A stretch of 64,000 nt of DNA, from contig JAPLZC010000010.1 of the NCBI GenBank assembly GCA_026395215.1, positions 7,371 to 71,370 of the forward strand, given 5' to 3'. This document shows, in pieces, positions 1 to 52,787 of this stretch; position 1 is the first letter of the stretch; each line of letters starts with the position of its first letter. The notes under the pieces were generated by a model, which saw only the letters and a program-made list of their open reading frames with translations, did no database searches and was not told the DNA's origin. Source of the stretch: Candidatus Staskawiczbacteria bacterium (GTDB taxonomy: Bacteria; Patescibacteriota; Minisyncoccia; Minisyncoccales; Staskawiczbacteraceae). Position numbers and translations under genes: made by a program.

Positions 1-3000
1 TGTCCAGGTTAAAATTATCTGATTGTTGCCAGCCAAAGCAGAAATTGCTGTTGGCGCGGTTGGGGCAAGACTAGCGGCTATATGAATTTCGTTTGAAAAA
101 ATGCTGTCGTCAATTGCGTTATGAGCTTTAATTTTATAATAATATGCCGTGCCGGTTGTGACGGTTGCATCGGTACAAGTAAGCACATTACCTAGGCTTG
201 AACATCCTCCCGAAATAAGCAAATCTCCTCCGCCAAAAGTTGTAGATCTGTAAACCTTATAACTTGTTATTGGAGAACCTCCAGTTGGACCAGCTGTCCA
301 ATTTAAAACAATTTGAGTACCATTGCCGATAGCTGATGCGGTAGCTGACGTAATTGTCGGAGCGCCCGGGGCTGTAGCTGAAATTACGGCCGAAACTTCA
401 CCAGAAAAAGTACCAACGCCAACCCTATTGACTGTTGCAACTTGATAATAATATGTGGTACCTCTGGTTAAACCTATATTAATATATGGTGATGCGCTTG
501 AAGTTGCGTATACAGTTGTACCTTCTCCGCCGGGTGTAGTAGAGCGATAAATATTGTAGCCGGTGATTGGGGAACCGCCGGTTGAACCCGGAGCTGTCCA
601 AGCCAATGTTACCTGAGTGTTGCTAACTGTCGCCGTCACCCCCGTCGGCACCCCCGGAACTGCAGCTGCTGTTACTGCAAAAGTTTGAGCATTGGATGTT
701 CCTCCGCCTGGCGCCGGATTTGTCACTGTAACGTTATAACTTCCTACTGTTGCAACATCTGTTGCAGGAATTGTTGCGGTTAACTGGGTTGAGCTAACAT
801 AGGTTGTAGTTTTGGCTGAGCCGTTAAAATTGACAACTGCACCAGAAACAAAGTTTGTACCATTAACCGTCAAAGTAAATCCTGCAGCTCCTGCAAAAGT
901 TGTTGAAGGTGAAAGACTAGTTGTAGTTGGAGTAGGATTGCCAATTGTAACTGTATTGTCAGTATAAGTTGCAACGACACTAGGATTTCCGCCAATATCA
1001 TGAGCCACGCCAGCGGCTATATTTGCAATGACAGTTCCCAAACCAGTCGCGCCGGATACAGCTACGTTATATGTTGTGCCAGAACCGGTAACAGTTGCTG
1101 TTGTAGCTCCGGCAGTTCCGGAAAGCGTAACATCACCGGTGGCAAAATCAGAAACAGATTCAGAAAAAACTGCTGTAAAATTAATTGGCGAGGCTGAAGT
1201 TGGATCTGCCTGTCCGGCAGCTTGATTGATTGTGACAGTTGGCGAAGTTGCATCAATATTAATAGTATTAGAAGAAACCCATGTTACATAATTTCCGGCC
1301 GCATCTGCTGCATATAAACAAATATATTTTCCATTGTTGGTTGCCGTTGCTTGAGTAGCAATAGCTGGACCAAAGTTAGGATAATCTGCTGAAACTGTTG
1401 AACAAGTTGTTCCGGTGTTATATTTCCATTTTGTCACAAATGCGCCTCCCCAATCTGCTACAATAGTATCTGATGATACCGGACCTATTTCAACACCATC
1501 GGTGAATGAAATAGAAGGAGAAGTAGTGTCTTTGGTTATACTGCCAACACTAGTGGTTCCAACATTGTTAGCCAAATCGGTATCTTTCAAATACAAAGTA
1601 AATGTACTGTCTTCAGTAAGCCCGGCAAACTGAGAGATATTACCAACAGTCGTTGTGCCACTTGTGCAATTAGTCCAGTTAATATTGTCAACTGAACATT
1701 TGGGGGCAACTGTTTCGCTATCTGTAAATGTAATTACTTTACTGGCGTTCACCCTTGTTGATGTTAACGGCGAAGTAATTGCAACGGTGGGGGCAGTGTT
1801 ATCAATTACAATTCCTGCTGGTAGGTTTGACACTGGCGTAGCAGGAGTTACCATACTGTTTGTCACTTGGTCCTTTATTGTTCCTGAAACAGATGAAACA
1901 GCAAGTCCCGAGGTATTGTCGCCTGCCTGAACCGTGTAAGTACAACCTCCTGATGAAGCGTTAGAAATGGTAAATGTGCAAGAACGACCAGTGTTAAGAT
2001 TTACTGTAACATTCCCCGTGCTGGTAACCGATTCGGAGAAATTAACATTTATAGGAATTGTTGCGCCAACACCATAAGATCCGCTGACTGCATTAGTGAA
2101 AACAGAAGAAATTGTGGGAGCAGTACTGTCAACAGTGAAATTGCTTGTTGAAGAAGTAGCAACATTTCCTGCTAAGTCAGATGCGTAAACTGAGTATGTG
2201 TAGTTTCCTGTCAATAATGTTGTGTTATAATTTATATCTTGACCATTATAAAGTGCCGCAATATCGCCGGCAGTAAGCGCGCGATTAAAGACCATAACGT
2301 CATCTAAAGAGCCGTTTAATCGATAACGCGGTGTACCATCGACTTTATACATACCCAGCCAAACATTTCCACCGTGTCCACAATAACGAATATCAGTAAC
2401 TTCATTACCACCATAAAATAAAATAGTAGTAGAAACTTCTGTTCCATTAATATATATTTTTCCATCTGTTGCTCCTGCTCCTGTATATTTCCATTTTCCA
2501 ACAACATGATACCATTGGCCCGCGCTTAATGTTGGAACAGAATACCAGTAGCTATATCTATTTCCAGGAGTACCACAACCACCTTCATTTGTTCCATTGG
2601 AAACACTGAAGAAAAACCTTCCATTAGCTGTAATCCCTGAATCCCATGACTGCCAGTAAGATGCTGGACCGTAGTCTTTTTGAATTATATATTGATCATT
2701 CCCAATGGAGTTAACTTTTACCCATGCTGACATTGTAATTTCTGTGGTTGGACTTCTTAACGAAGCAGAATCTGCCATTTCAACATAATCGCTGGTTCCG
2801 TTAAAATTCAAAGCTCCGCCCATATGTCCGAGCATGGACATTAAAGAAGTATCTCGCGCTGAGATTCCAGTGTTGCTTCCCATACTATCAACAACAGATG
2901 TACCGCTAACATCATTCATCTTCCACCAAGATTTTAAGCTTGAATCAAGATTAGGAACTATATATGCAAGGTTTTCACTGGCAGAAACATTAAATGGCAC

Positions 3001-4565
3001 AGATGACGGATAAAAAGAGCCGTTAGATGGTGAAGTAAGAGTGATTGTAGGGTCATTGCCATCTATAGCAAATGTTGCCGATGGTCCGGCTGAGACTGCG
3101 GTGTTGCCGGCGGTGTCTGAGGCGGTACCGGCTGCAATTGAAATTCCAATTGTACCATCACCAGTAATAGAAGAAATTGTAACTGTTCGAGTAGTTGTGC
3201 CCGAACCGGTACGGTTTTGTTGAGAGTGACGTTTACGTTTGCCAGAGTGACTGCGTCGGCTCCTGAATAAGTTATTGTGTAATTAATCGGACCGGTGTTA
3301 GTCAAAGTAGCTGAAGGCGAACTAATGGAGACTGTGGGGGCAGTATTATCAACAATGAATGTTGCCGATGGTCCGGCTGAGACTGCGGTGTTGCCGGCGG
3401 TGTCTGAGGCGGTACCGGCTGCAATTGAAATTCCAATTGTACCATCACCAGTAATAGAAGAAATTGTAACTGTTCGAGTAGTTGTGCCCGAACCGGTATT
3501 AGCTGTTCCGGTTTTGTTGAGAGTGACGTTTACGTTTGCCAGAGTGACTGCGTCGGCTCCTGCGTAGGTTATGGTGTATGTTATAGGACCTGACTTTGTT
3601 AAGCTGGCTGAAGGAGAACCGATGGAGACTGTGGGGGCAATGTTATCTATAGCGTAAGCTAGACTGCCAGCATAATACATGGCTGCTGGGGTGGCAGCCA
3701 ATGTTGCCCATGTGTTGGCAGAGATAGAATAACGATAAAAATCAGTAGTATTATTTCCCCGTGATGCATAAATATAATCTCCGGAACCGGGATAAACTAA
3801 ACTGCCACCAAATTCAACGCTTGCTGGTGTGGCAGCCATTGTTGCCCATGTGTTAGCAGAGATAGAATAACGATAAAAAGTAGGGGTACTATTTCCTCTT
3901 AGTGCATAAATATAATCTCCGGAACCGGGATAAACTAAACTGCCACCAGGATTAATGGTTGCTGGGGTGGCTCTCATTGTTGTCCATGTGTTAGCAGAGA
4001 TAGAATAACGATAAAAAGTAGTGGTATTATTTCCTCTTAGTGCATAAATATAATCTCCGGAACCGGGATAAACTAAACTAGCACCATTATCAGTGGCTGC
4101 TGGGGCGTCCTGCATAAAATCCCATCTATTGGCAGAGATAGAATAACGATAAAAAGTACGGGTACTATTTCCCACAAATGCATAAACATAATCTCCAGAA
4201 ACCAAACTACCACTACCATACATATATTGTGAGACACCGGCCATTGGTGTCCAAGCGTTGGCAGAGATAGAATAACGATAAAAATCAGTGGTAGCATTTC
4301 CTCTTAGTGCATAAATATAATCTCCAGAACCGGGACCGGGGCCAATTATACCACCACCCCAAGAAATAAAATCAGGTGGAAAACTAGCCAGTGTTGACCA
4401 GGAGTTATTAACAATAGAATACTTGGCAAAAGTATTATTCCAGGTAGTCACAGCATAAATATTTGCTCCTGCTTTTACATCTTTTGGAAAAATAAAAAAT
4501 CCGCAAAACATAAAGAACAGCAGGGCTGAGAGAATTATGGATGATGATTTTTTATTATGAAACAT
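1..4565 (-). CDS. Giant secreted adhesin-like surface protein. The 3' end lies outside the window, and the reading frame is interrupted by a 10-nt indel at 3211/3212.
   Basis: Track ORF 3063..4565 has a signal-peptide-like N-terminus (MFHNKKSSSIILSALLFFMFCGFFIF) followed by six blades ending in FYRYSISANxW. I spot-translated the minus strand below 3211 in the shifted frame over roughly 3100-2280 and 680-1; no stop appears there and the frame runs to position 1. It reads a LamG/ConA-like domain (SAWVKVNS, GQWYHVVGKW, GKIYINGTEV, LDDVMVFNRALTAGDIAALY) and FN3 units (VTLAWTAPGSTGGSPITGYNIYRS, IVLNWTAGPTGGSPITSYKVYRS, IILTWT at the edge). Confidence 0.8.
3060..3640 (-). repeat. Two tandem ~291-bp (97-aa) Ig-like repeat units; the distal copy is 10 nt shorter.
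   Basis: The protein unit APTVSI(G/S)SPSA..YTITY.GADAVTLANVNVTLNKTGTANTGSGTTTRTVTISSITGDGTIGISIAAGTASDTAGNTAVSAGPSATF occurs twice. Long identical DNA stretches match, e.g. 3071-3200 against 3361-3490. Confidence 0.85.
3650..4330 (-). repeat. Tandem ~138-bp units encoding Kelch-like beta-propeller blades.
   Basis: The plus-strand 21-mer gagatagaataacgataaaaa recurs at 3721, 3859, 3997 and 4135 (spacing 138) and again at 4264. Confidence 0.85.
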
Positions 4566-31704: not shown

Positions 31705-32956
31705 AGCGATTAGATGATGGTCTGTTACCTCTACGTGGAGGATAATTATCTTTGTAGGTTTCCGAAGCGCCTACTTGTTTGCTTGTAAAAGAAGTAAGAT
31801 CGGGCAATTTTGAAATTGGCAAATATACTCTAGTTAACCTTTCAATTTCTCTAATCATTTGGCCCTGTTCTGGCATAGCAAAAGAAATTGCTTTGCCCGA
31901 CATTCCAGCCCTACCAGTTCTTCCAATTCTATGGACATAATCTTCTGCGGCTTCAGGTAAATCAAAGTTAATAACCAACTCAATATTTTTTACGTCAATT
32001 CCGCGCTGAGCAATATCAGTTGCCACTAAAACTCTAAACCTGCCGGTTTTAAATCCTTCAAGGGCTTCCTTTCTTTGGTTAAGTGATCTATTTGAATGTA
32101 TTTCTGCTGCAGAAACTCCAATGGCTTTTAAGTTGTCGCAAATTTTTCTAGCTCCATGTTTAACCCTTACAAAAACTAAAACGCTTCCTTTATAGTCTCC
32201 AAGTAATTTTTTAAGCAATGGAAGCCTTTGCTCTCTCTTTACAACAAAAAGTTCATGTTCAACATTTTCCGCAGTAGTTCCCGGTCTGGCAATTTCTACT
32301 CTTACTGGAAGCTTCATATGTTGGGTAGCAATTTTTACAATACCATCTGGCATTGTTGCTGAAAATAACAATGTTTGTCTATTTTTAGGCACAACATCTA
32401 ATATTTTTTTAATTTGAGGAGCAAAACCCATATCAAACATTCTATCGGCCTCATCTAAAACTAAAACTGACACATCGCTCAAGTTTAAAGTTCTTTGCTG
32501 TATGTGGTCAATAATTCTTCCTGGAGTTCCAATAACTACGTGTGGGTTGCCTCTTAATGCATGCACCTGAGTGTACATTGATGCTCCACCAATTAGCACT
32601 GCGGTTTTTACACCAAAAGTCCTCCCAATTTTTCTTATTGTTTCTTCAACCTGCAAAGCTAATTCACGAGTTGGTAAAATAATTAAACCTTTTCCCTTAC
32701 CAGCTTTTAAAATTTGCTGAACCAAAGGAATTCCAAAAGCCAAAGTTTTTCCTGTCCCAGTTTGCGCTATTCCAATAATATCCTTGCCCTCTATGGCTGG
32801 TGTAATTGCCTTATGTTGTATCGAAGTTGGAATTTTAAATCCTAACCCAGAAATTGCATCCAAAAGCTGTGGAGCTATCCCCAGCCCACTAAATGTTGGT
32901 TCTGTTCCCGCCTTCACCGGCACTTCATTTATTTGTGTATCTGTCTGTTTATCCAT
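31679..32956 (-). CDS. DEAD-box ATP-dependent RNA helicase.
   Basis: Motifs AQTGTGKT, VLDEADRM, SAT and HRIGRTGRAG. Confidence 0.9.
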   Translation of the reverse strand: MDKQTDTQINEVPVKAGTEPTFSGLGIAPQLLDAISGLGFKIPTSIQHKAITPAIEGKDIIGIAQTGTGKTLAFGIPLVQQILKAGKGKGLIILPTRELALQVEETIRKIGRTFGVKTAVLIGGASMYTQVHALRGNPHVVIGTPGRIIDHIQQRTLNLSDVSVLVLDEADRMFDMGFAPQIKKILDVVPKNRQTLLFSATMPDGIVKIATQHMKLPVRVEIARPGTTAENVEHELFVVKREQRLPLLKKLLGDYKGSVLVFVRVKHGARKICDNLKAIGVSAAEIHSNRSLNQRKEALEGFKTGRFRVLVATDIAQRGIDVKNIELVINFDLPEAAEDYVHRIGRTGRAGMSGKAISFAMPEQGQMIREIERLTRVYLPISKLPDLTSFTSKQVGASETYKDNYPPRRGNRPSSNRFGHAKRRY

Positions 32957-33027
32957 AATATTTTAATTATATCCTAAAATCCCCAAATTGTCAAACGTTC
33001 CGCACTGAATCCAACCCGAAAAAAAAC

Positions 33028-33056
33028 TTGACATACCAATATAATGTTGATATAAT
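33028..33056 (+). promoter_or_regulatory. Consensus sigma70 promoter for the DGR target gene.
   Basis: TTGACA (33028-33033), then a 17-nt spacer taccaatataatgttga, then TATAAT (33051-33056). Confidence 0.75.
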
Positions 33057-33249
33057 AAAAAACTAAATAGCACCTTGAAATATGGTTCAGAAACATGAGA
33101 TGAGCGTTTTGTTCCGTCCCTAAAATGGAACCCACGGAGTAAACCGCTCGTCTCATGGGAGACAGACGTATAATCGGAATCGTAAGTCCGAAACACAGGT
33201 CGCTCTGAGATGATATCAAAGGGCTAACAGTGAACGAAGGAGCAGAGTC

Positions 33250-34023
33250 ATGAAATGGACAGATATCGCAACCGGTAAAACCCACAGCGCCTTTCAGCAA
33301 TTCATGGTCGCCCTCGGTGACAAAGCCGAGGTTGCCGTGGAACGTATGAATGCCGAGCCCGTGTTTGCGGATCGCTTGGCGGACTACGCCTTGAACGGTG
33401 GCGTTGAACCGGCAACCAACCAGAAGCGTGCCCGTGACATCATGGGCAAGGGCTTCTTTGGCATTGAGGAGGCTATCAGCCACTTTGGTGTCAATCCGAC
33501 TCGGAGGCAACTTGCCGTTCTTTCGGCAATTCCGGCCACAGAGGCGGAGTTAGAGCGGTTCAGAAACACGCACGTGCTCAGGGCGGTTTTCCCGCTCTCG
33601 ACTATCGAGATTCGGAACAGGACAGCGAAGGTCAAAATGCCAGACGACCAACGGTTGTTTGCCAAACAGGACTGGTACGACAAAGAGCCTTTCGCAACCG
33701 AACAAGGTGAGACAAGCTGGCAGTTGGTCTGCAAGACCAAAGTCGCCAACTCAACCTCTCTAAACTGGACGCAACAACAGGCTCTAATCGGCAAGGATGA
33801 CGAAGTACCCACGCTTCAAGTGATGGTCTACACTATCATCAGCCATTTCCTGGTCACTGGTGAGCGTCTCTTCGAGAAGCTCTACGTTCGCACTTCCAGT
33901 GTTTACTCGGATGGCAGCCGTGTCCACCTCGGTCGCTTCGGCTCTGAGGGTCTCGATGTCAGCCGCAGCTGGGATGGCCATTGCACTGACGACTTGGGCG
34001 TTGCCTCCGCTCGGAAGTTCTGA
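33250..34023 (+). CDS. DGR variable (target) protein. The C-terminal VR probably lies in a C-type-lectin/FGE-like fold.
   Basis: RBS gaaggag lies 7 nt upstream of the ATG. The last 41 codons match TR except at TR adenines. The C-terminal ..W.D..C....LGVASARKF resembles CLec-type VR ends. Confidence 0.85.
   Translation: MKWTDIATGKTHSAFQQFMVALGDKAEVAVERMNAEPVFADRLADYALNGGVEPATNQKRARDIMGKGFFGIEEAISHFGVNPTRRQLAVLSAIPATEAELERFRNTHVLRAVFPLSTIEIRNRTAKVKMPDDQRLFAKQDWYDKEPFATEQGETSWQLVCKTKVANSTSLNWTQQQALIGKDDEVPTLQVMVYTIISHFLVTGERLFEKLYVRTSSVYSDGSRVHLGRFGSEGLDVSRSWDGHCTDDLGVASARKF
33898..34021 (+). repeat. DGR variable region (VR).
   Basis: Gap-free 124-nt alignment to TR (offset +515) with 17 mismatches, 16 of them where TR has A. 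Confidence 0.9.
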
Positions 34024-34067
34024 GCCTGAACCTTGAGGTTTTGAGGATTGAATCCTTTTGACCCCTT

Positions 34068-34110
34068 GAGCCTTCTACGAAATTTTTTTCGGGGAAGGCT
34101 CTTTTATTTT
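34068..34110 (+). terminator. Rho-independent terminator of the target gene.
   Basis: Sequence GAGCCTTCtacgaaatttttttcgggGAAGGCTCttttatttt. Confidence 0.75.
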
Positions 34111-34412
34111 CTTCCATTATCATATAATATATAACTGTCTGCTAATGCAGGTACGGTTACGGCTTTACCTCGCAGGCGTCTCATCTTTTTGAGATATCAC
34201 CAGAGTATCGTTGTTTACGCCTGCCTACCGGCAGGCAGGGATAACGGTAGCGTGTGAGAAAGATGGAGATAGAACTTCTTGCTTGCCCTTGGTGGAGGTG
34301 TCCTGAGTTTTATCGAAGGACTGCTCTCGAATAAAATACAGGGGAAAGAGGATATAAGCTTTTAACGGCAGTAAACCTCGATTTCCAGTGACTTAGATGA
34401 GGGCAAGCAAAT

Positions 34413-34536
34413 AGTGTTAACTCGGATGACAACCGTGTCAACCTCGGTAACTTCGACTCTGAGGGTCTCAATGTCAACAACAACTGGGATGACAATTGCA
34501 ATGACAACTTGGGCGTTGCCTCCGCTCGGAACTTCT
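34413..34536 (+). repeat. DGR template repeat (TR).
   Basis: Non-coding and rich in AAC (9) and AAT (3) codon-equivalents. The 25 nt at 34507-34531 are identical to VR (IMH-like). One non-A mismatch occurs at 34532. Confidence 0.9.
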
Positions 34537-34557
34537 ATTTCTCGTCTGAAATTAAAA

Positions 34558-34585
34558 CGCTCTCCAAATTAGGAGAGAGTTTTTC
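34558..34585. terminator. Hairpin/terminator between TR and the convergent avd.
   Basis: Sequence CTCTCCaaattaGGAGAGagttttt, ending 1 nt before the avd stop codon. Confidence 0.65.
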
Positions 34586-34936
34586 TTAGCGGTCCTTAGT
34601 AGATTTAATCCACCCGCCAAGCATTCTGCCTATCTCATCTACATCCTCCTGGAGCAAACAATATTTTTTATTGTCCAACACTTTTATTTCCTTGCACAAT
34701 CTAAAAAATACTCGTAGAAAGTTTAACCGCAGGCTGACTTTTTCTAATACGGGCAACTTTTCTATTTTAAACAATTGGCTCGCCCATAATATGTTTTCGA
34801 GAATATCTAAAATTAGATTCTCACATCTTTGCCAAATTGTATAACGGTCTTGTCTAGCTATAGAATTGCGCAGGCTATAAAACTCTTTGTAGAGTTCATA
34901 GGTTTTCTTAAAAATTGGTATATCTAATTCATCCAT
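34586..34936 (-). CDS. avd: DGR accessory variability determinant (Avd; four-helix-bundle / 23S-IVS protein family).
   Basis: 116 aa, helical, with the family-typical ending EIGRMLGGWIKS. It is adjacent to the RT. Confidence 0.8.
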   Translation of the reverse strand: MDELDIPIFKKTYELYKEFYSLRNSIARQDRYTIWQRCENLILDILENILWASQLFKIEKLPVLEKVSLRLNFLRVFFRLCKEIKVLDNKKYCLLQEDVDEIGRMLGGWIKSTKDR

Positions 34937-34940
34937 AAAT

Positions 34941-35990
34941 ATGAAGGTTTATAGAAACATTTATAATAGTATTATTTCATCAGAAAATCTTTTTTCATCT
35001 TGGGATAAATTTAAGAGCGACAAACAGAAGAAGCGAGATGTGCTTAAATTTGAATGGAATCTTGAAGAAAACATCTTTCAGCTTCACAGAGATTTAGAAT
35101 CCGGTAAATACAAGCATGGTGCATATTCTTCATTTTATTTGCGTGACCCAAAACAACGTCATGTCCATAAAGCCGAAGTTAAAGATCGCATACTTCACCA
35201 CGCTGTTTTTAAAGTACTTAATCCAATCTTTGAGCCAACATTTATTTCTAATTCTTTTTCTTGCCAAACTGGTAAAGGCACGCACAAAGGGATAAGTACT
35301 TTAGATAAAACTCTAAGACAAATAAGTAGCAACAATTTCAAGCCGTGTTTCGCTCTTAAATGTGACGTTAAAAAATTCTTTGACACAGTCGACCATTCAA
35401 TTTTGTTGAGTATCATCCGCAAACGAATAAAAGACGCTACTACTATACGTCTTTTAGAAAAGATTATTAATAGCTTCTCATCCGAATACTCTAATATCTT
35501 TTACCAAAAAGGGCTGCCTATTGGCAACCTGACATCTCAGCTTTTCGCCAATATCTACCTAAATGAATTTGATCAGTTTATCAAGCATAAATTAAAAGTA
35601 AAAAACTATGTCCGCTACACAGATGATTTCGTTATTATTTCTAATGATAAAACATATTTGGAAAATTTAATCGCGTCTATCAGTTCTTTTCTTTCAGATA
35701 AGCTTTCCCTCAAACTTCATCCCAAAAAAGTTTCAATCTGTAAATTTCGTCAGGGGATAGATTTTCTTGGCTATATCGTTTTGCCACATTATCGTTTGCT
35801 TCGTACTAAAACCAAGAATCGGATTATCAAAAAATTAAAAAACCGAGTGGAAGAATATAAGAATAAAATAATAGACAAAAAATCGCTTGAGCAGTCACTC
35901 AACTCGTATCTTGGTGTATTGTCCCATGCAGACACCCATGGGCTGGAACAATATTTAAAAAACCAGTTCTGGTTTTGGCTTAATGAATAG
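34941..35990 (+). CDS. DGR-type reverse transcriptase.
   Basis: RT motifs KCDVKKFFDTVDH, LPIGNLTSQLFANIYLN (the DGR-typical IGxxxSQ) and YTDDFVII. No maturase/endonuclease domain is present. Confidence 0.9.
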   Translation: MKVYRNIYNSIISSENLFSSWDKFKSDKQKKRDVLKFEWNLEENIFQLHRDLESGKYKHGAYSSFYLRDPKQRHVHKAEVKDRILHHAVFKVLNPIFEPTFISNSFSCQTGKGTHKGISTLDKTLRQISSNNFKPCFALKCDVKKFFDTVDHSILLSIIRKRIKDATTIRLLEKIINSFSSEYSNIFYQKGLPIGNLTSQLFANIYLNEFDQFIKHKLKVKNYVRYTDDFVIISNDKTYLENLIASISSFLSDKLSLKLHPKKVSICKFRQGIDFLGYIVLPHYRLLRTKTKNRIIKKLKNRVEEYKNKIIDKKSLEQSLNSYLGVLSHADTHGLEQYLKNQFWFWLNE

Positions 35991-36004: not shown

Positions 36005-37486
36005 TTATAACGAGCCGAGGTCTAGGGTGAAGTCTACTCGGATTTTTTCTACAAAGTCGGGGACGTGGCTTACTAGAATCATGGCGCCGGCAAAATCATT
36101 GATGGCTTTGGCAATAATTGGTATGTGTCTAAAGTTTATATGATTTGTTGGTTCGTCTAAAACAAGTAATCCCGGTTTTTCTAGGGCAATTGTGGCAAAG
36201 GCAACTAAACCTTTCTGACCCTCGGACAAATCCCCTATTTTGGCTTTTAGAATTTCTGCGTCCAATAAAAATCCTGCTGCATGCGCACGCAAGCCTTGTT
36301 CTGTGCCATCGCTTCTCCCTCCTTCGGTCGGGACTGCGGCTTGCGCTTTTGCAAGCGTTTGGTAAACCGTTGCATTAAAATCTAATGTTGAAAAATCTTG
36401 CCTGTAATATCCTATTTTTACTCCGGCTTTTATGTGCTCACCTTTTGCATGTCCCGAAGCTAATTTTTCTAAAAGAGTTGTTTTACCAATTCCGTTTGGC
36501 CCTGTTAAAAGCAACCTTTCATGTTTATTTAAAGTAATATTTACTTTTTTGTTTACAAATTTATGATTTATTGCAACAGCCACAGAATCTAATTGCAAAA
36601 TCACTCCACCAATATCCTGCTGACAAGGAATAGAAAAATTTCTAATTGTTTTATCTTCCCTTCTTACATCTACAATTTCACCTTCTAGTTCTTCAATTTT
36701 TTTCTTCATTTTTGAAGAAACATCTCTCATGTGTCCTCCTTTTTGCGCAAAAAAGTTGGCTTGTTCTTTTCTGTGAGAAATATCTTTTTCTAACCTCATA
36801 TTTTTCATTCTCTCTCTTTCTAACCTTGCTGAAATTTCTGCAACAACTGCAAAGTAGTCGCCGGTATATTGTTCAACTTTTTTGGAAAAAATATCCAAAT
36901 ATAAAACTCCTTGTGTAAAAGTGTTTAAAAAATCTGCGTCGTGAGAAATAACAATACAAGTTTTAGGATATTCAACAATAAATTTTACCAAATGAGCAAT
37001 TCCAGCCTTATCTAGGTTATTTGTTGGCTCGTCTAACAAAAGCAAATCTGGGTCTTGTATTAAAGCCGAAGCCAAAAGAATTCTTGCCTGTTGTCCACCC
37101 GAAAGCTTTTTTATTGGCCTGTCATGTGGCATAGACAAGTTTACAATTTCCAAAGCTTCGTCTATTCTTTTATCAATGTCATAAACTTTTTCCTTAAAAC
37201 ATTTCTGAAAAAATTCTGTAATAGTTAAATCTAAATCTTCACGTGGAATTACCTGTTTAGCTGTAGCTATAGTTATGTCTTTGTTTATATTAATAACTCC
37301 GCCTTCCGGTTTTACTTCGCCTGTAACCAAAGAAAAAATAGTACTTTTCCCTGCTCCGTTCTGCCCCATTAAAGTAATTTTTGACCCTCTGCGTACAGAA
37401 AAACTGGCCTCATTTAAAATTGGTTTTGCTGTTGCCCACTCAAAAGACACATTAGAAAATTTTACAATGATTTCATTACCCGACAT
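36005..37486 (-). CDS. ABC-F family ATPase (two ABC domains, no TMD).
   Basis: Motifs GQNGAGKST / LSGGQQARILLA and GPNGIGKTT / LSEGQKG. Confidence 0.85.
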   Translation of the reverse strand: MSGNEIIVKFSNVSFEWATAKPILNEASFSVRRGSKITLMGQNGAGKSTIFSLVTGEVKPEGGVININKDITIATAKQVIPREDLDLTITEFFQKCFKEKVYDIDKRIDEALEIVNLSMPHDRPIKKLSGGQQARILLASALIQDPDLLLLDEPTNNLDKAGIAHLVKFIVEYPKTCIVISHDADFLNTFTQGVLYLDIFSKKVEQYTGDYFAVVAEISARLERERMKNMRLEKDISHRKEQANFFAQKGGHMRDVSSKMKKKIEELEGEIVDVRREDKTIRNFSIPCQQDIGGVILQLDSVAVAINHKFVNKKVNITLNKHERLLLTGPNGIGKTTLLEKLASGHAKGEHIKAGVKIGYYRQDFSTLDFNATVYQTLAKAQAAVPTEGGRSDGTEQGLRAHAAGFLLDAEILKAKIGDLSEGQKGLVAFATIALEKPGLLVLDEPTNHINFRHIPIIAKAINDFAGAMILVSHVPDFVEKIRVDFTLDLGSL

Positions 37487-37610: not shown

Positions 37611-39233
37611 TTAATGTACAGCGAACCCGCGGGCTCCGCAGCCGTCGTCCAGCATATGGAGATTTGCACCTGCGTCCTTGCAGTGCTGAATTGTTGCAGG
37701 ATCTCCTCCGCCCGGCGCCTTGCTTCCGCTTGTGCTGAATATTGTTTTTACGCCGCCATCTGTCAGCACTTTCGGTCCGTCAGGATACGGGAAGAAGCTG
37801 TCGCTCCATGCAACCGAATCTTCCAGCTCACCTCCATTGCCTGCCTTTTTGGCCCTGAGCAACGCAACCATTGCAGCTCCAACGCGGTCCTGCTGGCCGA
37901 CGCCATTGCCAAGCAACTTGCGATTTTTCACCACAGTAATCGTATTGCTGTTCCCAGTGCGCGCAATTGCGCCGGCAAGCAGCAAATCCAGCTCCTTGTC
38001 TCTGTCGCGTGCTCCCGCCACAAGCGTGCTGTCGTCTAACACGGGCACATAGTTGTCCCGAGGCTGTGTGAGAAAACCTCCGCGCACAGGCCTGCATTGC
38101 AGAGAAGAATCCATCTTGAGATCTCTGCTTGCGAGATGGGGATTGACCACCATCCTGCATTTCCCTTTCACGCGCTCCAGAAATTCACCGACGCCTTCCT
38201 CGATTTCAGGGGCAACCACGCCGTCGAACTTTTGCGTTTTGCCCTCCATGCCGGCGTGAACCATAAGTCCGGCTAAATCCTTGGTGAGCTTAAAGTTGCA
38301 CATTACAACTCCGCCCATGGCAGCAGTGGTATCGCCTGTAACTGCATTTAGGACCGCTTGTGCCGGATTATCCATGTCGATGCCGGCGCCACAGCAATTG
38401 CCGTGTTTAACAACAAGGCACACACAGGGAATAATTCCCCTCTTGCCAATGTAGTTTACCACGTGCGTCAGTGTTGTGATTTCGCGATCGTAGTCGGTCA
38501 CGTTGATGTAGCTTGGAGTGCTCCCCTCAACAACATGGAAATTCTCCAGTGCGAGAGGATCTTTGCTGCCTGTGCTATAAAGTCGCGCCGGCTTCTGTTT
38601 GTTTTCGCCGTAGGCAAGCTCTTGCACAAGCTCGCCCATCAAACCTTCGAACTGCCCATTGCCATGATATCTCGCAGAAGCGAGCACGTACTTGGCAACT
38701 TCGAATTCGGCGCGGGCCCGCAGTCTCTGGCGAGTCTCCTTCGAAACAGCGCCGGTTTCTTCAAGCTCACGCAAAATCACCTCGCGATCTTGAAGCGTAC
38801 AGGCGACAATCCGCAGGCCTTTTGCCGCCGAACGGACCATGCACGGCCCGCCAATGTCAGTGCCTTCTGCCACGCTCTCAGGAGTGGCGCCAGCTTCAGA
38901 GATCGTTTTCTCCAACGGATAGAAGTCACAGATCACCATACTGATGACCGGAATACCGAGCTTCTTTAGCTCTTTCATGTCTTCCTGTTTGTCGACATTT
39001 GCCAGTAAGCCGGCATGAACTTCCCGCGACAGTGTGACAACGCGGTGGCCGAGAATTGATCCCCCGCCAACCAGCTTAGCCACATCTCTAACAGGCACGC
39101 CTGCTTCCTTGAGTTTTTTTGCGGTACCGCCCGAGCTGATAATTCTCCAGCCCAGCGCAACCAATCGACGGGCACAATCTTCTATGCCCGTTTTATTGGA
39201 GACCGACAGCAACGCCCATGGCTTTGCTTTCAT
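37611..39233 (-). CDS. purH: Bifunctional AICAR transformylase / IMP cyclohydrolase.
   Basis: MGS-like N-terminus (ALLSVSNKTGIEDCARRLVALGWRIISSGGTAKKL) plus an AICARFT domain. About 60% G+C on a 60-nt hand count. Confidence 0.85.
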   Translation of the reverse strand: MKAKPWALLSVSNKTGIEDCARRLVALGWRIISSGGTAKKLKEAGVPVRDVAKLVGGGSILGHRVVTLSREVHAGLLANVDKQEDMKELKKLGIPVISMVICDFYPLEKTISEAGATPESVAEGTDIGGPCMVRSAAKGLRIVACTLQDREVILRELEETGAVSKETRQRLRARAEFEVAKYVLASARYHGNGQFEGLMGELVQELAYGENKQKPARLYSTGSKDPLALENFHVVEGSTPSYINVTDYDREITTLTHVVNYIGKRGIIPCVCLVVKHGNCCGAGIDMDNPAQAVLNAVTGDTTAAMGGVVMCNFKLTKDLAGLMVHAGMEGKTQKFDGVVAPEIEEGVGEFLERVKGKCRMVVNPHLASRDLKMDSSLQCRPVRGGFLTQPRDNYVPVLDDSTLVAGARDRDKELDLLLAGAIARTGNSNTITVVKNRKLLGNGVGQQDRVGAAMVALLRAKKAGNGGELEDSVAWSDSFFPYPDGPKVLTDGGVKTIFSTSGSKAPGGGDPATIQHCKDAGANLHMLDDGCGARGFAVH

Positions 39234-45950: not shown

Positions 45951-46026
45951 CGCGGGCGACGGGATTTGAACCCGTGATCTCTCCCGTGACAGGGGAGCAT
46001 TCTAAACCAGGCTGAACTACGCCCGC
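45951..46026 (-). tRNA. tRNA-Asp (GUC).
   Basis: A manual cloverleaf gives: acceptor GCGGGCG/CGCCCGC, anticodon arm CTCCC-CTGTCAC-GGGAG, T arm ACGGG-TTCAAAT-CCCGT. 76 nt; CCA is not encoded. Confidence 0.9.
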
Positions 46027-46321: not shown

Positions 46322-46393
46322 TGCCGACGGCAAGAATCGGACTTGCGACCATAGCCTTATGAAGACTCCGCTCTACCACTGAGCTACGCCGGC
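46322..46393 (-). tRNA. tRNA with CAU anticodon (Met or Ile2); atypical T-loop.
   Basis: Acceptor GCCGGCG/CGTCGGC, D arm GCTC-AGTGGTA-GAGC, anticodon loop TTCATAA, T arm GCAAG-TCCGATT-CTTGC. Confidence 0.7.
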
Positions 46394-52426: not shown

Positions 52427-52787
52427 TGTCTTAGCAAGACTGTAAGCCGAATTCTGTATTATGTGATTATCTATCTGCCCATTCGATTACTCTCAGGGTC
52501 GAGCGAACTACTTTTAACCTTTTTCGATGATGAAACAACGAAAATAGGCTTTGTTCTTGCACCCAATAAGGATTTAGCCGTTTCATTCTTGCATTTCTGC
52601 AAAACTTATCCTTGCGGATACCTCTGCCTTTCGGCTTTGGCGTTACTGTTCGCACCTCTGTCTTACGACTGATGGCTGTTAGCCACTATACTTTTAGAGC
52701 CGCTTTCGCGACAATTGGTGTTCGGACTTTCCTCCCCGTCACAATGCCGAAGCTTTGGTCGGGGCAATCACTCATCTTGCTAAGACA
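52427..52787 (-). ncRNA. rnpB: RNase P RNA (bacterial type).
   Basis: The minus strand contains GGGGAGGAAAGTCCGAACACC (P4 5' strand) and ACAGAATTCGGCTTACAG. The P1 stem TGTCTTAGCAAG / CTTGCTAAGACA closes the ends. Confidence 0.9.

Follow-up and report, generated by a model that had tools for sequence, protein, structure and literature searches.

How does the template of a diversity-generating retroelement (DGR) reach its reverse transcriptase (RT) when the two are arranged such that a single transcript seems unable to carry both? This question is raised by a locus from Candidatus Staskawiczbacteria, a lineage that belongs to the Candidate Phyla Radiation (CPR), within a 64,000-nt stretch of DNA that was analyzed as a whole and is called the window below (GenBank assembly GCA_026395215.1, contig JAPLZC010000010.1, positions 7,371 to 71,370 of the forward strand). 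The window contains a complete DGR with the order target gene (+), template repeat (TR, +), avd (-) and RT (+). CPR DGRs are the largest DGR group known from metagenomes. To our knowledge, all mechanistic knowledge of how DGR reverse transcription starts and stops comes from a single element, that of a Bordetella phage, which has a structured spacer (Sp) between TR and RT. Approximately 90% of CPR DGRs cannot have this arrangement, and no explanation of how they work was found in the literature. We identified a conserved structured RNA domain that abuts TR on its 5' side and is predicted to clamp both ends of the template; this domain is the new part of the analysis, and the gene order itself adds nothing new. 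Such a covariation-supported RNA offers a concrete, testable answer to the question of template organization in CPR DGRs. The explanation that we favor, and which we consider reasonably probable, is a CPR DGR whose template is carried by a separate structured RNA of ~450 nt that clamps both TR flanks.

The element has the features that define a DGR: an RT of the DGR type, an adenine-biased pair of TR and variable repeat (VR), a VR in the 3' end of the target gene, and Avd. TR (34413..34536, +) and VR (33898..34021, +) were aligned over 124 nt and differed at 17 positions, 16 of which were TR adenines; the sole mismatch at another base was 5 nt short of the repeat's 3' terminus. An open reading frame (ORF) of 257 aa (33250..34023, +), the target gene, carries VR at its 3' end, and the product of this gene had no match in Pfam, NCBIfam or PDB sequence searches. 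Homologs of this gene were present upstream of TR in 24 related loci. The avd gene (34586..34936, -) codes for 116 aa, with its ATG at 34936 and its stop codon at 34586-34588; the protein scored 60.4 bits with PF22296 (cutoff 40) and 80 bits with NF033474, which is exactly the cutoff (80) of that model. The Avd accessory protein occurs in most DGRs, but not in all. The RT (349 aa, 34941..35990, +) matched RVT_1 (E = 2e-26), and its translation contained the motifs IGNLTSQ and YTDD, which are of the [ILV]GxxxSQ and YxDD type. It was 100% identical to a protein from a Candidatus Staskawiczbacteria metagenome-assembled genome and had more than 7800 relatives, mostly 349 aa in length and mostly from CPR bacteria. 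The start codons of avd and RT are divergent and separated only by the 4-nt spacer AAAT (34937-34940). We searched the window for a further copy of VR, RT, avd or the structured domain and found none; the TR/VR pair is single. This complete DGR is probably active; with regard to adenine-specific mutagenic retrohoming, the analysis covered the static pattern of TR/VR differences.

An earlier examination of this DNA without database searches (the sequence-only reading) had listed the target gene, TR, avd and RT, the 4-nt spacing of the start codons and a hairpin between TR and the avd stop codon, and all of these are present in the sequence. It had also regarded the layout as non-canonical, with the proviso that the layout would lose its interest if it turned out to be common in the RT clade. 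We compared 80 loci from species-representative genomes, nearly all from CPR/Patescibacteria, whose RTs were 46-80% identical to that of the window. An avd gene was detected in 77 of the 81 sequences searched (the 80 loci and the window), and in 73 of these 77 it was located immediately upstream of RT on the opposite strand. The gap between the two start codons had a median of 4 nt and measured -3 to 16 nt in 60 of the 72 loci with a divergent avd, and this narrow distribution indicates that the arrangement is not due to chance. TR was found on the RT strand, ending no more than ~70 nt from the avd stop codon, in 56 loci and the window, with one exception (L014). Wu et al. (2018; Nucleic Acids Res 46:11, PMC5758913) report an architecture B3, TR-(avd)-RT, for 90% of the CPR DGRs in their set and describe it as nearly absent outside CPR. 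The window has the same order and orientation of TR, avd and RT and the same host group, with no difference in gene order from B3 as described there. Thus, the layout is architecture B3, the published norm for CPR, and the comparison removes the interest that had been attached to it. In the passages of that paper that were consulted, no mention of transcription units, promoters or RNA structure was found for B3.

Several variants of the arrangement were observed. Three loci of Peregrinibacteria/Peribacteria (L024, L025 and L066; ~2200-4000) had the block of target gene, domain and TR inverted relative to RT and still convergent with avd; in these loci, RT is divergent from the target gene rather than from avd. 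In six other loci (L031, L037, L056, L063, L050 and L067), VR was 0.85-2.7 kb from TR, on the opposite strand, or downstream of RT, and the core of domain, TR, avd and RT was unchanged. A second repeat pair or a second VR was present in L006, L023, L032 and L067.

The interval between the target gene terminator and TR was strongly conserved among the loci. The sequence-only reading had proposed that 34024-34412 be searched for covariation but had missed what this interval contains, a structured domain of ~275 nt (34136..34412, +) with seven named helices and conserved unpaired junctions. The predicted helices are P1 (34136-34142 with 34172-34178), P1a (34147-34158 with 34161-34171), P2 (34196-34200 with 34254-34257), P2a (34206-34216 with 34239-34249), P3 (34279-34290 with 34399-34410), P4 (34294-34304 with 34317-34327) and P5 (34341-34351 with 34376-34386, plus 34358-34360 with 34367-34369), all on the plus strand. 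P3, a stop-like duplex, ends 2 nt before TR. P4 and P5 are separated by the unpaired A-rich junction CGAATAAAATACA (34328..34340, +), which is among the most conserved nucleotides in an alignment of 70 sequences; as a whole, the most conserved nucleotides in this alignment were those of unpaired junctions, namely AcT.ctTG, aAt.aaAT.CAg, GTG.....GA.g and gcAa. The terminal loop of P2a contains an inserted GC-rich hairpin, GCCTGCC TACC GGCAGGC (34219..34238, +), which was found only in this genome among 25 aligned sequences. A different variable insertion, between P1 and P2, was seen in L015, L019, L024, L025 and L066.

Strong covariation shows that this domain is a conserved structured RNA, which is apparently undescribed. 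In the 25-sequence alignment (A2), RNAalifold predicted 66 pairs in nine helices, 49 of which had changed on both sides; 97.1% of the alignment cells were paired, compared to 83.2% in column shuffles and 41-47% when the partners were slid by 1-3 columns, and all helices were supported. The 70-sequence alignment (A4) had 96% of cells paired versus 69% in shuffles, with 27 of 28 pairs changed on both sides, figures which are somewhat flattering because this alignment was fitted to a covariance model. Over the two alignments, the slid controls had ~45-50% of cells paired. Of the 12 pairs of P3, 11 had changed on both sides in the 70 sequences. The frequent occurrence of G-U pairs indicates that the structure is formed by RNA of the TR strand. 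The domain had no match in Rfam 15 at gathering thresholds when the whole window was searched, and none within 34136-34412 at E <= 10 when 32950-35000 was searched; the only matches at this level in 32950-35000 were three chance miRNA-like ones, all to a hairpin in the leader of the target gene.

The domain is closely tied to TR. An nhmmer profile detected one copy, abutting TR and on the TR strand, in 55 of the 80 loci, including the three inverted ones, and a covariance model of the 3' two-thirds of the domain gave one match per locus in 69 of 80. In the 64-kb window, this model had a single match (34250-34413). Every full-length match of the domain ended at the start of TR, and among the 11 loci without a covariance-model match, several were contigs that ended upstream of RT. 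The model also found the domain in loci with no detectable TR/VR pair, and it can mark TR units independently of a VR match.

Since the region 34024-34412 lies directly downstream of VR, we considered whether it acts as DNA, or as the 3' untranslated region of the target mRNA, in the manner of a target recognition or homing element such as the initiation of mutagenic homing (IMH) sequence and cruciform of Bordetella. Two features beside VR could serve as homing signals. The first consists of five phased (C)TTGA repeats (34037..34073, +) located directly 3' of VR and the target stop codon and before the terminator. Such repeats averaged 2.6 per 66 nt in 60 loci versus 0.34 in shuffles, with a modal spacing of 8 nt; TTGA-type repeats were present at the equivalent position in ~45 of the 60 loci, with the core CTTGG in distant loci, and five copies were found in the window and its closest relatives. 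The second is the hairpin of the predicted intrinsic terminator of the target gene (34068..34110, +), formed by GAGCCTTC...GAAGGCTC and followed by TTTTATTTT. In an alignment of 20 loci, the sequence of this stem varied while the pairing was kept, and the T-run was conserved. However, it is this conserved terminator and T-run that separate the target gene from the domain, the G-U pairs point to selection on RNA of the TR strand, and the domain stays with TR in L031, L037, L056 and L063, whose VR is either distant or on the other strand. We consider a role of the whole region as DNA or as an untranslated region very improbable. For the TTGA repeats themselves, it might be that they are a target-side recognition signal matching the proposed RNA; that five of them would correspond to a pentameric Avd is pure speculation.

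Besides the internal helices, the domain has a predicted partner on the far side of the template. A purine-rich, primer-like strand AGATGGAGATAGAA (34261..34274, +), which is unpaired in the domain and is located just before P3, would pair with the template-side strand TTCTATTTCTCGTCT (34533..34547, +), composed of the last 4 nt of TR and 11 nt of the spacer behind it. The resulting duplex has 14 bp and one bulge (-15.4 kcal/mol). The two strands co-vary between groups of loci, which have different sequences that still match: domain strand AGATAGAGA and post-TR strand TCTCTATCT in close relatives, TGAGGAG and CTCCTCA in L011, CTTGAGGAG and CTCCTCAAG in L038, AGAGAAGGAAGT and ACTTCCTTCT in L045, GCATTACC and GGTAATGC in L053, and TTGATGA and TCATCAA in L061. 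Cognate partners had a mean energy of -12.1 kcal/mol compared to -8.5 for non-cognate ones, and the cognate mean was reached in none of 5000 permutations (n = 39); owing to the relatedness of the loci, this figure should not be read as a true probability. In an unbiased scan of the whole domain, the best partner of the post-TR strand fell in the primer-like region in ~25 of 36 loci. The TR/VR mismatches at bases other than A provide a further observation, as 36 of 55 were located in the last 10 nt of TR. Such clustering fits a situation in which the last nucleotides of TR are covered by the duplex and do not get transferred to VR, with initiation upstream of them.

We also considered the idea that GAACTTCTTG in the domain is a copy of the TR 3' end. 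This was rejected, as distant groups have ACTGCTTG in combination with unrelated TR ends; the resemblance to the TR end results from the register of the duplex and a near-palindrome, not from duplication.

Where would an RNA with these pairings begin and end? At the 3' side, the avd stop codon is only 49 nt away from TR, and the remaining interval to RT is antisense avd. The spacer contains a hairpin (34554..34583) with the core CTCTCC/GGAGAG (34560-34577) and the extended form AAAAC.CTCTCC/GGAGAG.GTTTT (34554-34583), followed by TTTTT/T-rich sequence and then by the avd stop codon (34586-34588). It has the GC-rich stem-loop and the T-run by which intrinsic (Rho-independent) terminators are predicted, and it scores as a terminator in either direction. 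Of the 39 loci whose TR and avd stop codon are 28-70 nt apart, 38 had a hairpin of 6-18 bp (at least 8 bp in 37), with a mean z-score of -6.2 (39 loci); its position was conserved and its sequences were unrelated between loci. Many of these hairpins were preceded by an A-tract and followed by a T-tract. Most of the distant loci with a spacer of 2-27 nt also kept the hairpin, and in ~9 distant loci it straddled the avd stop codon, with the T-run on the TR strand inside avd coding DNA. Maintenance of the hairpin and of a TR-strand T-run within avd coding DNA suggests that its conserved role is tied to the TR RNA. The hairpin resembles bidirectional intrinsic terminators in its GC-rich stem, its flanking A- and T-tracts, its location between the convergent TR RNA and avd, and its terminator scores on both strands, but differs from them in distant relatives, where the hairpin extends over the avd stop codon and only the TR strand has a T-run.

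In L014, the closest relative (RT 80% identical) and the exception mentioned above, the loop of the hairpin after TR was interrupted by an IS3-like element (990-2375), which has two minus-strand ORFs (135 and 276 aa) and a 3-bp ATC duplication at its borders. The 1.45 kb between TR and avd in this locus seemed to offer a test of whether the hairpin belongs to TR or to avd, but the locus is uninformative in this respect because the gap is the insertion in the hairpin loop.

At the 5' side, a -10-like box, TATAAT (34123..34128, +), precedes the domain and is proposed to be part of the TR RNA promoter. All 29 loci compared had, upstream of the domain, a hexamer with 4 or more matches out of 6, located 3-13 nt before the TGCTAATG anchor; in 15 of the 29 it was located 9-13 nt before TGCTAATG, and 9 had the extended TG form. 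The sequence is AT-rich, and we therefore regard this evidence as moderate.

Taken together, the covarying terminator that the target gene has for itself, the post-TR hairpin, the T-runs embedded in avd, the -10-like box and the inverted loci provide good support for the proposal of the sequence-only reading that TR is on a transcript of its own, independent of the RT mRNA. In L024, L025 and L066, co-transcription with RT is impossible, as TR is on the opposite strand. The alternative is that the hairpin is leaky and that the functional template RNA runs through antisense avd into RT, in which case Sp-like elements would be located in antisense avd and the domain would have another role. The T-run after the hairpin is indeed short or absent in some loci (e.g., L010, L020 and L026), and read-through would be one route to RT expression, as no clear RT promoter was found inside avd. 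This alternative nevertheless appears improbable: it cannot operate in the three inverted loci, which retain both domain and hairpin; distant loci maintain hairpin and T-run even within avd coding DNA; and both TR flanks pair with the 5' domain and not with downstream sequence. With regard to the promoters of RT and avd, we searched for each inside the 5' end of the other gene and found no clear candidate. The motifs present there (TGGTATATC upstream of RT and TATAAA upstream of avd) are conserved but coincide with conserved codons, and they are not separable from coding constraint. From the layout, it is plausible that each promoter lies inside the other gene, as had been suggested.

As TR is unlikely to be co-transcribed with RT, RT-Avd must use a separately made TR RNA. 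In this respect, the sequence-only reading, which inferred that a TR RNA has to be captured in trans, was right about the separate RNA; that this would be something special does not hold, as the Bordetella RT-Avd (bRT-Avd) is active in vitro on separately supplied DGR RNA (Handa et al., bioRxiv 10.1101/2023.10.23.563531).

In the mechanism that we propose, the template would reside in a separate non-coding RNA of ~450 nt, roughly 34136-34585, outside the RT and avd mRNAs. This RNA would begin just past the target gene terminator, from a promoter with the conserved -10 box, and would end where the hairpin and its T-run adjoin the stop codon of avd. TR would be held as a loop between two duplexes, the first formed by 34261-34274 and 34533-34547 and the second, 4 nt further on, by P3. 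RT-Avd would bind the RNA in trans; cDNA synthesis would start near C34532, primed from or next to A34274, and would stop at P3, at the 5' edge of TR.

The order of these elements can be compared with the DGR RNA of Bordetella phage BPP-1, which consists of the avd 3' end, TR and Sp (Handa et al. 2018, PMC6182149) and whose Sp structure corresponds to motif RT-10 (Weinberg et al. 2017, PMC5737381). In this RNA, Sp53-56 is paired with TR118-121, and priming at TR G117 is by the 2'-OH of A56; two nt on, Sp59-70 pairs with 11 nt of avd sequence close upstream of TR to form the stop duplex, and next along the chain are a small stem-loop, adenosines without a partner, the 'thumb ring', which is single-stranded, and a long stem-loop that binds RT, whereas Sp3-33, directly 3' of TR, is an Avd-binding stem-loop (Handa et al., bioRxiv 10.1101/2023.10.23.563531). 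Both systems have Avd and an RT with IGxxxSQ. In both, two duplexes flank TR, one on the 3' side of the initiation site (a proposed site in the CPR RNA) and the other just 5' of TR, and they are formed by one continuous RNA segment with a linker of 2-4 nt; next come a stem-loop (P4 in CPR), an A-rich single strand (the junction) and a long stem-loop (P5), and a further stem-loop follows shortly after the template-side strand. P3 corresponds to the Bordetella duplex just upstream of TR (the cPRT stop) in position and pairing, and by analogy it may have the same stop function. By the same analogy, the post-TR hairpin may also be an Avd-binding stem-loop.

The two RNAs also differ. The window has no Bordetella-type structured spacer of ~140 nt between TR and RT on the RT strand; instead, the Sp-like part is located 5' of TR, such that the CPR RNA would be circularly permuted. 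Its chain runs from P5 into the upstream TR flank, and only the post-TR stem-loop, which would double as the terminator, is downstream of the template. In addition, the CPR RNA has two extra 5' hairpin arms (P1 and P2), no sequence or Rfam similarity between the two RNAs was detected, and the CPR RNA appears to form a transcription unit of its own that converges with avd; its priming and its protein contacts are proposed by analogy.

It could be argued that the domain is a real RNA but serves in stability, processing or regulation, e.g., in sensing a signal for diversification, that the pairings with the TR flanks merely close the loop, and that priming is from a nick or an RNA 3' end. A nick-primed mechanism is reported to have been proposed for Bordetella (PMC5703328), the structure and pairings in CPR are based on covariation, and the proposed priming residue varies between groups of loci. 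On the other hand, the elements match those of the Bordetella DGR RNA one by one in their order, no riboswitch or other Rfam family was matched, and the domain always abuts TR. A function of this kind, separate from priming, is in our opinion unlikely.

Several points weigh against the proposed template RNA and should be considered when it is evaluated. The loci are related, so that the shuffle tests overstate significance, and alignment A4 was fitted to the covariance model. For 11 of the 36 loci scanned, the pairing energies favored another part of the domain as partner of the post-TR strand, namely purine-rich strands already engaged in helices. The end nucleotide of the primer-like duplex varies, being A in one group and U or G in another, which leaves A34274 as a candidate for the priming residue. 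The start and end of the transcript are predicted from sequence motifs, and a -10-like hexamer in AT-rich DNA is a weak signal; the post-TR hairpin could be only a terminator, with no role in Avd binding. That P4, the A-rich junction and P5 are counterparts of the stem-loop, thumb ring and RT-binding stem-loop of Bordetella is suggested by their order and has no support from sequence. Handa et al. (bioRxiv 10.1101/2023.10.23.563531) assigned stop duplexes and stem-loops of CPR DGRs using 40 nt upstream and 100 nt downstream of TR, and their assignment differs from ours. Finally, a full-text literature search found no description of an RNA domain upstream of TR, but Paul et al. 2017 was outside its coverage and may describe parts of it.

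The proposed RNA also has similarity to the msr-msd RNA of retrons, which is likewise a structured non-coding RNA near an RT that carries the template and a nucleotide with a priming 2'-OH (priming being a proposal for the CPR RNA). It differs in that retron RNA usually lies upstream of its RT in a shared transcript and has a template that does not repeat a target gene. The Rfam search of the window matched none of the retron RNA families, and the window RT scored only 55.9 bits with the St85 retron RT model (cutoff 235).

A wider proposal concerns CPR DGRs in general: they would use a circularly permuted RNA, with primer, stop and RT-binding elements 5' of the template in a domain of ~275 nt, made as an independent terminated transcript, and cDNA would be primed internally near the position of A34274. 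We put this forward tentatively, as a possibility that may well need revision. If it is true, reverse transcription would yield a branched RNA-cDNA molecule, with the branch upstream of its own template. For experimental purposes, the ~450-nt RNA provides a defined minimal RNA for in vitro reconstitution or engineering of a CPR DGR.

Additional features were found around the element. The target gene is preceded by a sigma-70-like promoter (33028..33056, +) with TTGACA, a 17-nt spacer, TATAAT and an upstream TG, which matches the consensus at 12 of 12 positions. A second promoter with a perfect 12/12 sigma-70 consensus (32994-32966, -) is arranged back to back with it (region 32966-33056) and faces a DEAD-box helicase gene. 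The 5' leader of the target gene (~190 nt, 33063..33249, +) contains a long hairpin (33094-33159), the strands of which are ATGAGAYGAGCG...CGCTCGTCTCAT, and the leader fold had a z-score of -3.4. The leader was conserved in seven related loci (L001-L004, L009, L022 and L023); its sequence was largely invariant, with few compensatory changes and little covariation.

Base composition of the region is mosaic. The target gene and the TR RNA region (33000-34600) have ~54% GC, compared to ~32-36% in RT, avd and neighboring host genes. A 540-aa ORF (37611-39233, -), which appears purH-like, has ~55% GC. Downstream of the DGR, the RT stop codon is 14 nt from the stop codon of a convergent ABC-F ATPase gene (36005-37486, -), with no terminator-like hairpin between the two. 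Elsewhere in the window, we found a bacterial RNase P RNA of class A (52427-52783, -), whose score of 105.8 bits is slightly over the gathering score of 100, and two tRNA genes (45951-46026 and 46322-46393), both on the minus strand.

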